A stretch of DNA of 64,000 nt from an uncultured Verrucomicrobiae bacterium (lineage in GTDB: Bacteria > Verrucomicrobiota > Verrucomicrobiia > Limisphaerales > UBA11358). A model generated the notes under the pieces. It searched no databases, was not told the DNA's origin, and saw only the letters and a program-made list of their open reading frames with translations. This document shows positions 6,161 to 8,623 of the stretch, one piece after another. The translations under genes were made by a program, and so were the position numbers. Position 1 is the first letter of the stretch. Each line of letters begins with the position of its first letter. The stretch is taken from contig CAWHCL010000010.1 in the NCBI GenBank assembly GCA_963827815.1, positions 128,482-192,481 on the forward strand, read 5' to 3'.

Positions 6161-8623
6161 TCAGCCATCACATATTTTCAAAAACTCCGCTTCGTCCAAA
6201 ATCTTCACGCCCAGTTCCTGAGCCTTGGAGAGCTTGGAACCGGCTTCGGCGCCGGCCAGCACAAAATCCGTTTTCTTGCTCACGCTGCCGGTCACTTTGC
6301 CACCAGCGGCTTCAATCTTCGTCGTGGCTTCCTCGCGCGTCAGTGAGGGCAGTGTGCCGGTCAACACAAATGTCTTGCCGGCAAACGCGCCTTCCGGTGT
6401 GGCACCACCGGTTTTCTCGTTTTGCGGCTTGATGCCCAGTTCGCGGATGCGGGCGAGAACTTTTTTTCCAGCTGGTGACGCGAAATAATCCAGCACGCTT
6501 GCCGCCGCCACCGGGCCAACTTCCACCAGCTTTGCCTTTAAGCCGCCGGTTTCCAGTCGCGATTCAATCGCACCAATCTCCACTTTGAGTTCCGCGTCAC
6601 GCTGTTCACGTTTTGCTTTCTCGGCTTCGTTCTTCGGCGGATTCTTGCGCGAGCGCGGGCTGATTTCGGCGCGTTCGGTTTCCTTCGCGCCGAAGTCGCG
6701 GATGTCGCGCAGGACTTCTGACTTGGCGAGCGCGTCCAGCGATTCGTGCGTGGCGGCGAGCTGCTTGGCGGTGGCTTCGCCCACGTCGGCAATCGCCAGC
6801 GCGTGAATCCAGCGGGACAGCGGCGCGGTCTTGGCGCGTTGGAGCGCGTCGAGAATCTTGGTGGCGTTCTTCTCGCCGAACGTGCGCGGCTCGTCGTCCG
6901 TGCCGAGATTCAGTTTGCCGAGCACTTCCAGTTTCAGGTTGAACAGGTCGAGCGGTTCCTTGACGAGGCCGCGTTCGACAAGTTTTTCAGCCACGATGCC
7001 GCCGAGCGATTCGAGGTCGAGCGCCTTGCGTTGTGCGAAATATTCGACGCGCCGCGTGAGTTGTGCCGGGCAGCCCGCAATGTTCTGGCAGCGCCACGCG
7101 ACTTCCTCGTCGTCGGCTGATTCCTCCTCCCTCTCCCCGCCCAAACGGGGAGAGGGTTGGGGTGAGGGGTTTTTAGTTACGAACAGTTGTGCCTCCTCAC
7201 CCCGGCCCTCTCCTCCCTTGGGGGAGGAGAGGGAGACAGTCCTGCTAGTCTTGATTTTATCTTTCGCAATCGGGCCGCCGCACGCGGGGCATTTGCCGCC
7301 GACGTGCTTGAACAAATCAAATTCTTGCGCGCCGGGCGGACGTTTGGTTTTCACCACCTCGAAAATTTCCGGGATGACCATGCCGGCCTTGCGGATGACC
7401 ACGGTGTCGCCGATGCGGATGTCTTTGCGGCGGATTTCGTCCTCGTTGTGGAGAGTGGCGCGCGCAACCGTGGAGCCTTGGACAAAGACCGGTTCAAGTT
7501 CCGCCACGGGCGTAAGCACGCCGGTGCGCCCGACTTGCACGGTGATGGCCTTGAGCACGGTTTCGGCGGGCGTGATCCACGGCACGGGCTTGTGGACGAT
7601 GGCATAGCCCGGCGCGCGGCTGCGACCGGGAATGCACGGCCAATCGGCGAGTGTATTGACCTTGAGCACAATACCGTCAATCTCGTAAGGCAATTGCCGG
7701 CGCAAGTCTTTGGTCTCGTCGTAGTGCGCGACAACCTTGTCCGCATATATTTTCAAAACTTCCTCGATACCGTTGCAAACCCACCAGAGCTTTTGCGTTG
7801 GCAAACCGAACTTGGCAAGCGATTGCAGCATTTCGGAGTGAGTCTTAAACTCAATCCCATCACACTTGCCGGTGGCGTAAAAAACGGCACGGATAGGGCG
7901 TTGCGCGACTAATTTCGGATCGAGTTGCTTGAGTGTGCCGGCGGTGGCGTTCCGTGCATTGGGGAAAGGCTTTTCGCCATCGGCGGCGAGCTTCTCGTTG
8001 ATGGCATCGAATTCCTTGATTGCCATGTAAGCCTCGCCACGCACTTCCAGCAGGGCAGGCGGATTTTTCAAATTCAATTCCAATGGAATGCCGCGGACGG
8101 TCTTGAGATTGGTGGTGATGTCGTCGCCTTCCGTGCCGTCGCCGCGCGTGACGCCGATCGCGAACTTGCCATGGCGGTAATGAACGCCGATGGATACCCC
8201 ATCCACCTTTGGCTCGATGATGTATTGGATTTTATCGCGACCCAAATGTTTGCGAATGGTCGCATCGAACGCGCCGAGTTCTGCCAGCGTATTTTCGTCC
8301 TGTGCGCGATTGCGTTTGTCACGGTCGGGTTCCGCGTCCTTGGTCGGAGAATCGCTGGCCTGCACCTTGTCGAGCGAGAGCATCGGCGCCAGATGTTTGA
8401 CGCGGGCAAATTTTTCACTCGGTGCGCCGCCGACGCGTTGCGTGGGCGATTCCGGCGTGACGAATTCAGGAAATTGCTTTTCAAGTTCCTGAAGTTCCTT
8501 GAAAAGGTGGTCGTATTCGCCATCGGTGATGATTTGCCGGCCTTCGACGTAATAGGCGTGGTCGTGCCGGTGGATTTCGTCAGCAAGTTGTGCGTGTCGT
8601 TTTTTGGCCGCGGTGTGCGTCAC
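6161..8623 (-). CDS. ligA: NAD-dependent DNA ligase
   Basis: ORF 6161..8761. Contains HDHAYYV, the adenylation-domain KVDG, OB fold, Zn-finger cysteines CPACG...RCQN..CPAQ, HhH region and a C-terminal BRCT ([10 protein letters not shown]). The start is placed at the GTG at 8623 ([17 protein letters not shown]) by spacing to the conserved N-terminus. There is no in-frame ATG between 8761 and that motif. Confidence 0.9.
7123..7235. repeat. Composite palindromic repeat inserted in frame inside ligA
   Basis: Unit A is 7123-7169, cctcctccctctccccgcccaaacggggagagggttggggtgagggg. Unit B is 7192-7235, cctcctcaccccggccctctcctcccttgggggaggagagggag, roughly the reverse complement of A. It translates within LigA as [38 protein letters not shown]. 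Related units occur at 48045-48076 and 51794-51840. Confidence 0.7.

Follow-up and report, generated by a model that had tools for sequence, protein, structure and literature searches.

BoxC/PIT/triplex-motif (TM) repeats have been known since the 1990s, are highly conserved and occur in distant phyla, yet neither a function nor a mechanism of mobility has been established for them. Holder et al. (2015, PMC4666352), who cite earlier BoxC/PIT work by Bachellier and by Hoyne and Maher, give the BoxC/PIT/TMECO pattern as CCCTCNCCC-N3-6-GGGNGAGGG-N3-GGGNGAGGG. Escherichia coli K-12 carries 23 copies of the motif, "always located intergenically", and a census found 3,610 copies across 262 proteobacterial genomes. 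Type A units have TTA and type B units CCG as their second loop, and each of five inverted pairs consists of one A and one B unit. The motif forms a triplex in vitro as single-stranded DNA, though not demonstrably in vivo; in E. coli it showed no activity as a promoter or terminator and did not block polymerase in vivo, and its loci are hypervariable between strains (PMC4666352). Here we describe a pair of this family inside ligA, the gene for NAD-dependent DNA ligase, in a 64,000-nt stretch of an uncultured Verrucomicrobiae bacterium (contig CAWHCL010000010.1, assembly GCA_963827815.1; hereafter the window), where it lies in frame between the two cysteine pairs of the enzyme's zinc finger.

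Palindromic repeats are known from within genes. Rickettsia palindromic elements (RPEs; Ogata et al. 2000), as described in the available text of two reviews (PMC3184786, PMC10969869), lie in frame in functional protein genes. According to the available text of Di Nocera et al. (2013, PMC3733652), intragenic repetitive extragenic palindromes (REPs) of the GTAG type are most numerous in the verrucomicrobium Opitutus terrae, where the ATP-dependent DNA ligase Dnl1 is among the hosts, and intragenic GTAG/CGTC REPs are found in excess in replication and repair genes. In-frame palindromic repeats are therefore already known; what is new here is the LigA host, the BoxC/TM family and the use of one loop as an insertion hotspot.

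A triplex-motif pair in the LigA zinc finger

The ligA gene occupies positions 6161-8623 of the window on the minus strand, with a GTG start at 8623, and its 820-residue product, taken from the list of open reading frames (ORFs), is an exact match to a database protein (P0001). Pfam assigns it Nlig-Ia, adenylation, OB, HhH and BRCT domains, and with the Cys4 zinc finger between the OB and HhH domains the LigA architecture is complete. E. coli LigA (2OWO) matches the window protein at E = 1e-131 in a phmmer search of the PDB, with all four cysteines aligned: the first pair, Cys445-Pro-Ala-Cys448 (7280-7291, minus strand; reverse complement TGCCCCGCGTGC), aligns to E. coli C408/C411, and the second, Cys512 and Cys518 in the translated motif CQNIAGC (7070-7090, minus strand), to C426/C432. 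Between the pairs the alignment breaks. Window residues 445-453 pair with E. coli 408-416 and, after the break between 453 and 505, residues 505-512 pair with E. coli 420-426. The Pfam model of the C4 zinc finger is matched by its second half alone (profile positions 13-27 of 27), as would be expected of a split domain. An initial annotation, made from the window's letters, had read a 63-residue spacer between the cysteine pairs and given about 14 residues for E. coli. Both values hold: we count 63 residues from Cys448 to Cys512 (CPAC...63...CQNIAGC), and the 2OWO alignment gives C408-x2-C411, then 14 residues, then C426.

Within the interrupted segment lies a 109-nt core repeat pair (7127-7235, minus strand), whose ends were taken from an alignment of ligA copies with free copies in loci L030 and L031. 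In the coding direction it consists of a type B unit, a 22-nt spacer and an inverted type A unit, in agreement with the two mutually inverted units of about 45 bp that had been noticed at the outset (41-44 nt by the present delimitation). The type A unit (7127-7169), read on the plus strand, is CTCCCTCTCCCCG-CCCAAA-CGGGGAGAGGG-TTG-GGGTGAGGGG, a three-block TMECO pattern with the second loop TTG. Its blocks CCCTCTCCC, GGGAGAGGG and GGGTGAGGG match the published pattern exactly, and its first loop measures 10 nt when 9-nt blocks are assumed and 6 nt with an 11-bp stem. The type B unit (7192-7235), read on the coding minus strand, is CTCCCTCTCCTCCC-CCAA-GGGAGGAGAGGG-CCG-GGGTGAGGAGG; the second loop CCG defines the type, and the blocks are all lengthened together, to 12, 12 and 11 nt, with the mirror symmetry of blocks 2 and 3 kept. 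On the coding strand the second, inverted unit follows a spacer of about 22-25 nt as CCCCTCACCCC-AA-CCCTCTCCCCG-TTTGGG-CGGGGAGAGGGAG. The window's spacer (7170-7191, minus strand) encodes ...AQLFVTKN... and has an identity of 0.70 among eight ligA copies. Judged by its blocks and loops, the ligA element is a B+A inverted pair of the BoxC/PIT/TMECO triplex-motif family with small deviations from the published pattern.

The inverted-repeat arms (7127-7167 and 7195-7235) are 41 nt each, 83% complementary and 27 nt apart, and each holds its own perfect hairpin of 11-12 bp; a 27-nt arm core is expected 0.00 times in shuffled sequence. ViennaRNA predicts that a 133-nt region around the pair folds as RNA into one long hairpin (-78.5 kcal/mol, z = -5.7) and as DNA into three hairpins (-40 kcal/mol, z = -5.7). 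A promoter and terminator scan around ligA gave nothing above the shuffled expectation and placed no site within the insert, and no gathering-threshold match to Rfam occurs anywhere in the whole window. An intein or intron was considered and rejected on inspection, the segment consisting of 45 low-complexity residues that carry no splicing motifs and align to intergenic repeats.

The initial annotation had proposed that the repeat is dispersed and had named two intergenic relatives in the window. One of these stands: a single type B unit at 51796-51839 (plus strand) is 93% identical over 44 nt to the arm at 7193-7236, fits the TM regular expression and is not covered by any long ORF. The other, at 48045-48076, was rejected as a family member, since it shares a 12-nt exact stretch (74% over 31 nt) and forms a hairpin of its own. 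The dispersed character of the repeat is further borne out by complete pairs between genes in L030 and L031, which align with the ligA segment and carry the same arm subtypes.

Comparison with orthologues indicates when the segment is present and when it is not. We used the 120 best LigA orthologues (79-100% identity), which come from metagenome-assembled genomes (MAGs) that are Verrucomicrobiota/Limisphaerales-like. About 35 of the 120 (83-86% identity) have no insert, a spacer of 20 residues (…IAKEKMSGGETDEVAWRC…) and an intact PF03119 domain, while the remaining 85 carry an insert of at least 8 residues at the zinc loop, with spacers of 35-82 residues. Farther afield the spacer is shorter still: it is exactly 14 in 120 of 120 LigAs from Zetaproteobacteria, despite their wider divergence (56-100% identity), and of 135 diverse LigA cluster representatives in which the four-Cys motif can be recognised, 105 have exactly 14 and about 90% fall within 12-20. 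Its absence from some 35 close orthologues, together with the spacer of 14 in distant ones, argues that the segment is an insertion and not an ancestral domain. The earlier expectation that the insert would be lineage-specific is supported, and the segment is not broadly shared among orthologous ligases. Its size needs correction from about 50 extra residues to a net 43 relative to the closest insert-free orthologues, because the basal spacer of the lineage is 20 residues rather than 14.

In an AlphaFold2 model of the window LigA (mean predicted local distance difference test score, pLDDT, 83.3) the inserted coding segment, residues 459-503 (7115-7249, minus strand), is the sole long low-confidence stretch, with pLDDT 26-31. 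It extends between the β-strands 451-456 and 508-512 as a predicted disordered loop at the tip of the zinc ribbon, where the 2OWO alignment also breaks and which orthologues with a 20-residue spacer lack; the supposition that it would loop out of the zinc finger thus agrees with the model. An alignment of 60 close homologues alone gave an unusable model (mean pLDDT 53), and the value of 83.3 was reached after a Zetaproteobacteria clade was added. A fold search with the model returned LigA structures as the best matches.

Two further segments of the window LigA are extra relative to the E. coli enzyme. Residues 94-113 (about 8285-8344) lie in the linker between the Ia and adenylation domains, and residues 637-697 (about 6533-6715), some 60 residues in the HhH region, are modelled mostly as long helices (636-654 and 666-691). 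Both are kept in all 120 orthologues and are lineage-wide features, not repeat-derived polymorphisms.

The likeness of the ligA element to BoxC/TMECO lies in a C-rich block that is followed, after a loop, by a G-rich block and, after a further loop of 3 nt, by a mirror G-rich block, in highly conserved stems with variable loops, and in loci that are hypervariable between relatives. The pairing of a B (CCG) unit with an A unit is found in ligA, in the free copies of L030 and L031, in copies within cca and at phnD-phnE of E. coli; the phnD-phnE spacer of E. coli strain S51 holds two tandem pairs with an architecture like that of the ligA pair. Of 5426 complete E. coli genomes searched with blastn, 5396 have a match, at a median of 4 places per genome. 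The matches are mostly 80-90% identical over single units, and the best, among them an intergenic phnD-phnE pair, cover 84% of the pair at 70.6% identity. The differences are of structure and of location. The type B unit has 12-nt blocks here against 9-nt blocks in the published motif, and the hairpin stem of type A is lengthened by 2 bp, with the result that the N3-6 first loop is exceeded if 9-nt blocks are used. Whereas the E. coli copies are intergenic and the census was proteobacterial, the present copies are from Verrucomicrobiota and occur both between genes and in frame within genes, in ligA and in at least 10 other protein families. Exclusively intergenic location is a descriptive property of the E. 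coli copies, not part of the structural definition.

In architecture the pair also resembles REPINs (Bertels and Rainey 2011, PMC3116915). Both consist of inverted palindromic units with a short spacer of conserved length, the pair rather than the single unit appears to propagate, a long single-stranded DNA or RNA hairpin is predicted, and copies persist at orthologous loci (PMC3116915). The 83% complementarity of the ligA arms, their single long RNA hairpin and the subtype asymmetry found in all copies fit a REPIN pair. REPINs, however, are extragenic by definition (PMC3116915). The TM units also begin with CTCCCTC and have no GTAG head; a RAYT gene was not searched for. We know of no association of TM units with a RAYT transposase. 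GTAG-headed pairs, which make up the ligA insert types B, C, D and E described below, are a much better fit to REPINs than the TM pair is.

With RPEs and intragenic REPs, so far as the available text of PMC3184786, PMC10969869 and PMC3733652 describes them, the element shares in-frame palindromes in housekeeping genes that are apparently tolerated in loops and linkers, pairs that typically encode tens of residues, and replication, repair and tRNA-related genes as frequent hosts. The GTAG-19 family of Opitutus terrae (GTGVPPV...HGRDARAT), as given in the available part of PMC3733652, corresponds to ligA insert type C. The TM pair itself has neither a CGTC nor a GTAG tag and appears to be a separate repeat family, and its host gene and site, the LigA zinc finger, also differ. 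The parallel with Rickettsia drawn in the initial annotation is consequently apt as an analogy of behaviour, given the in-frame motif in at least 10 other families, but does not extend to membership. One loop occupied by at least eight families, and conservation of synonymous sites inside the host gene, are not described in the available text of these three sources.

Copies outside ligA and the zinc loop as a hotspot

A protein search with the insert peptide returned 16 candidates; it missed the LigAs themselves and found "hypothetical proteins" of 46-81 residues, which are translated free-standing copies of the whole pair. The two arms are of different subtypes and the difference is conserved in every copy, which identifies the pair as the unit that propagates. 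The gene for the CCA-adding enzyme (cca) provides a filled and an empty site for comparison. In L034 and L001 it carries an in-frame TM B+A pair of 55-57 residues, and in the window and in L009 the site is uninterrupted; the window gene (15448-16752, plus strand; PolyA_pol head and HD domain) reads LFQPP-HAARGLVLL across it.

A scan of metagenomes for the type B G-blocks found at least 120 contigs with the motif, in samples from peat, soil, lake and groundwater. The partner arm is present in at least 51 of the 121 matches listed, and 59 of 73 pairs have their arms 23-25 nt apart. Another three ligA copies were recovered, and the motif lies in frame in at least 10 protein families besides LigA. 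Among the matches listed, Pfam confirmed in-frame hosts in MnmE, ValRS, PutA, TilS, a RecF-like protein, the HAD domain of a P-type ATPase, S-adenosylmethionine (SAM) methyltransferases, a nonribosomal peptide synthetase (NRPS)-like enzyme and an α-amylase. These copies have consequences for annotation. LigA, the CCA-adding enzyme, ValRS, MnmE, PutA and others carry repeat-encoded low-complexity loops in this lineage; such loops break domain models, to the extent that PF03119 is missed in most of these LigAs, and intergenic copies of the pair generate spurious small ORFs.

The 85 occupied zinc loops hold at least eight unrelated types of sequence. Type A2 is the one in the window and type A1 is a single TM-like unit. 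Types B (GRAELPLG…AQQRVPT) and C (GTGVSPVS…HGQDARAT) are GTAG-headed palindromes in inverted pairs, type G (SREEREx…PSQPSRD) is a pair of long inverted arms, and the others are types D (GRVTPCAP…GAHGVTRPT), E (GQASRLSQ…DRRDACP), F (GGTSSTSP…ELVPP) and H (SAGASPAL…RRGRRSAAPEAGALP). Copies of types F, G, C and A1 are also found outside the ligA loop in other loci, and the insert of L005 looks like a decayed remnant. All of the zinc-loop inserts follow the codons GA(T/A)AAA (Asp/Glu-Lys). In an indel map of the 120 proteins the zinc loop is interrupted in 85, a loop of the adenylation domain at about residues 183-190 in 7 and the vicinity of residue 253 in 2; the inserts at 183-190 are GTAG-type palindromes, and those at about 253 are 40 residues long and palindrome-like. 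The tip of the LigA zinc ribbon is therefore a highly insertion-tolerant site, and could serve engineering.

Neighbor-joining (NJ) trees, built from the 120 proteins and from 30 loci, came out star-like or unresolved, and outside the loop members of one insert type are no closer to each other than to those of another (identity about 0.88-0.89 in both cases). Because the trees have this form, we claim at least one insertion event per unrelated type.

Several ligA loci show additional arrangements. The ligA of L012 (9631-12123) has two in-frame GTAG type C pairs, one in the zinc loop and one in the adenylation-domain loop, where the insert, near 10230-10300, reads IPWEL[GSGSGVSPVR...THRRDARATS]LLEVRGE. 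In the type F insert of L013 (6360-6470) the 12-mer AAATTAAAATCG stands on both sides of the first arm, which could be a target-site duplication or the result of insertion beside the remnant of another element. In longer A2 variants (L034, L035, L037 and L001; spacer 67-82 residues) the pair is flanked on each side by additional short hairpins, such as GCCAACTG-CAAA-CAGTTGGC in L035; their sequences differ between genomes while the hairpin potential is kept, and the short A2 form of the window may be a deletion derivative of such a longer composite element. About 1.5 kb downstream of the insert-bearing ligA near P0103 is a separate gene whose product of 195 residues matches PF03119 and HhH motifs, and which looks like a stand-alone copy of the region interrupted in the main ligA.

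Conservation of the arms and its possible causes

That the arms stay constant at the nucleotide level within an essential gene is the most interesting part of these observations. A copy fixed in such a gene is an orthology anchor, so that the same insertion can be followed across genomes, and it comes with an internal neutral reference in the synonymous sites of the host gene and in the element's own spacer. Eight A2-type ligA genes were available as DNA (the window, L001 and L033-L038), and mean pairwise identities were calculated among them. In the flanks, identity is 0.91-0.94 at codon position 1, 0.96-0.97 at position 2 and 0.62-0.67 at position 3, values that indicate strong purifying selection on the LigA protein and near-saturated synonymous sites. 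The left arm has an identity of 0.93 and the right arm of 0.95 over all positions, and third codon positions within the arms, most of them four-fold degenerate, reach 0.97, whereas the spacer between the arms has an identity of 0.70. Of the 87 arm columns 67 are invariant, as are 8 of the 22 spacer columns and 66 of the 350 third-position columns of the flanks (Fisher's test: arms against flank third positions, p = 3e-24; arms against spacer, p = 5e-4). Measured by these internal controls the arms are clearly not evolving neutrally, which makes the choice between a "selfish remnant" and a "maintained element" testable.

Recent re-insertion cannot explain the intact arms, because the spacer between them is about as diverged as neutral sites are. 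This leaves selection on the arm sequence, or its repair by gene conversion limited to the arms. The blocks hardly vary among 54 distinct type A arms, which come from many environments, and the variation sits in the two loops; in the stem of the right arm of L035 we found one compensatory T-A to G-C change, the only clear one, and one wobble-preserving change. From these alignments, what is conserved appears to be the sequence and geometry of the arms, not merely their pairing. The GTAG-type inserts B and C behave similarly, with identities of 0.95 and 0.88 against 0.58 and 0.63 at flank third positions; types F, G and A1 show less excess conservation than B and C.

The eight ligA copies share their orientation, their frame, the right-junction motif (A/G)AG(C/G)(C/A)ATC.GCC and the AQLF signature of the spacer, and the free copies have neither the junction motif nor the signature. 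On these grounds we infer a single ancestral insertion for the A2-type ligA copies.

We consider it probable that the element is a tolerated, translated, in-frame insertion of a BoxC/TM-type palindromic pair at the zinc-ribbon tip, and that this site is now a landing pad. A non-autonomous BoxC/PIT/TMECO repeat, in the form of a REPIN-like inverted B+A pair, would have entered the DNA for the tip of LigA's zinc-ribbon hairpin once, in a bacterium ancestral to a sub-lineage of Limisphaerales-like Verrucomicrobiota. Being in frame and free of stop codons, it would be translated into some 43-45 residues rich in Gly, Glu, Pro and Ser, which would form a disordered loop between the Cys pairs. The essential ligase would still work because neither the four zinc ligands nor the remainder of the enzyme is disturbed, and at the protein level the insert would be tolerated rather than useful. 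The loop appears to be structurally permissive, and this would have made it a landing pad at which palindromic families, at least eight of them and unrelated, have been acquired, exchanged or lost in part; the DNA just after GA(T/A)AAA may be a preferred target. Since the arms remain nearly constant, four-fold third positions included, while the spacer and the synonymous sites of the host drift, something would be acting on the DNA or RNA sequence of the arms. It could be selection for a sequence-specific structure or a binding site, or else gene conversion from other copies that is limited to the arms.

Several observations weigh against this account or parts of it. Mobility is read from the distribution of copies; the literature reports no transposase for BoxC/TM elements, and none was searched for here. 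At the filled cca site one His codon is replaced and no flanking direct repeat or target-site duplication is seen relative to the empty site, and in this the element departs from MITEs (miniature transposable elements with inverted repeats), whose inverted arms it has. The protein trees do not group the A2-type carriers in one clade. Recombination at ligA or repeated site-specific insertion there may have played a part, the case for a single origin resting on the junction and spacer signatures, and the conservation of the arms may reflect gene conversion rather than selection. In L016, a long-read MAG, the type B insert at about 11378-11433 contains a stop and a frameshift, and about 30 codons downstream the frame is regained; two indel errors of long-read sequencing, in a stretch rich in hairpins, are the probable cause, although it may be a real disruption or recoding. 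Translation of the insert and activity of the enzyme are themselves inferred, all of the data being metagenome assemblies.

The over-conservation of the arms could also mean that the element is kept in ligA for a role of the nucleic acid in cis, with the peptide as a by-product. A very stable mRNA hairpin, or transient DNA hairpins or a triplex, might modulate ligA translation, co-translational folding where two domains meet, transcript stability or the passage of replication forks, or the arms might be binding sites for a host protein. Arm third positions at 0.97 (flanks 0.62-0.67, spacer 0.70), the predicted RNA hairpin of -78.5 kcal/mol (z = -5.7), the compensatory T-A to G-C and wobble-preserving changes in L035, a spacer fixed in length at 23-25 nt and variable in sequence, and the like over-conservation of the GTAG types B and C (0.95 and 0.88) are all consistent with such a role. 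So is the frequent location of insertions at domain boundaries in other hosts (for example PutA, TilS and MnmE), but simple tolerance predicts this too. Yet LigA needs no particular element, given that about 35 of 120 close orthologues are insert-free and others carry unrelated sequences; intergenic copies and copies within unrelated genes have arms just as invariant, which points to a constraint on the whole family and not to one specific to ligA; and the E. coli motif showed neither promoter, terminator or in vivo polymerase-blocking activity nor a triplex in vivo (PMC4666352). We regard a cis role in ligA as unlikely. Less likely than not, too, is a broader proposal, in which the BoxC/TM (and GTAG) arms would be under purifying selection at each locus, also where they lie inside an essential coding sequence, because the host or a resident recognition protein needs them intact, and in which the zinc loop would be a site-preferred landing pad after GA(T/A)AAA and not just the single place that tolerates inserts. 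If true, the arms would be not merely decaying selfish DNA but sequence-specific DNA or RNA elements, and coding-embedded copies, with the synonymous sites of the host as a neutral clock, would offer a general way to show function for this repeat class, which has long been a puzzle.

The remaining explanations fare worse. The peptide is well conserved among A2-type carriers, and the zinc finger of LigA sets the position of the HhH domain relative to the OB fold (review, PMC7470946), so that a loop there could in principle affect clamp closure; one might suppose that LigA has put the inserted peptide to use as a surface loop with a function, such as interaction or regulation close to the OB/HhH hinge. 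However, synonymous third positions are as well conserved as the peptide, which is thus not what the conservation is about, and the same peptide is encoded by intergenic copies and within unrelated proteins. The segment is also of low complexity with a pLDDT of 26-31, and its place is taken by eight unrelated sequences and is empty in many orthologues. Co-option is in our view very improbable. An ancestral or lineage-wide LigA subdomain, for which the other lineage-wide insertions at 94-113 and 637-697 might be called to witness, or an assembly artefact, is hardly credible: the orthologue comparison refutes it, since close orthologues lack the segment and distant LigAs have a spacer of 14, and the segment aligns at the DNA level with intergenic elements. 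Independent assemblies (NCBI, ENA and JGI) reproduce the insert, which is present in eight ligA loci, and arms of 44 nt are shorter than the k-mers typical of the final steps of assembly. The tolerated in-frame insertion of a TM pair remains the reading that we prefer.

Other repeats of the window

The window contains GTAG-headed repeats as well. An intergenic GTAG-headed REP pair at 138-241 (AAAGTAGGGCAGGCGTCTCGCCTGCC ... GGCAGACGGGACGCCTGCCCTATTTT) is arranged head to head with a 52-nt spacer, a REPIN-like architecture, and belongs to the same family as the type E ligA inserts. A third GTAG unit lies at 11572-11604, at the 3' end of the ORF 10347-11582.

Composite intergenic repeat modules, none with an Rfam match, are found at 48190-48320, 50630-50884, 51713-51956 and 54248-54638, with four to six recurrences within 6.5 kb; ATTAGCGGTTAAAAAATCCGTGTCCATCCGTG and CGCCTGCCGCGCCGAAATCAGATGAAG..GGTGGTT are examples of their sequences. 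The single TM unit at 51796-51839 lies directly 3' of one of these modules.

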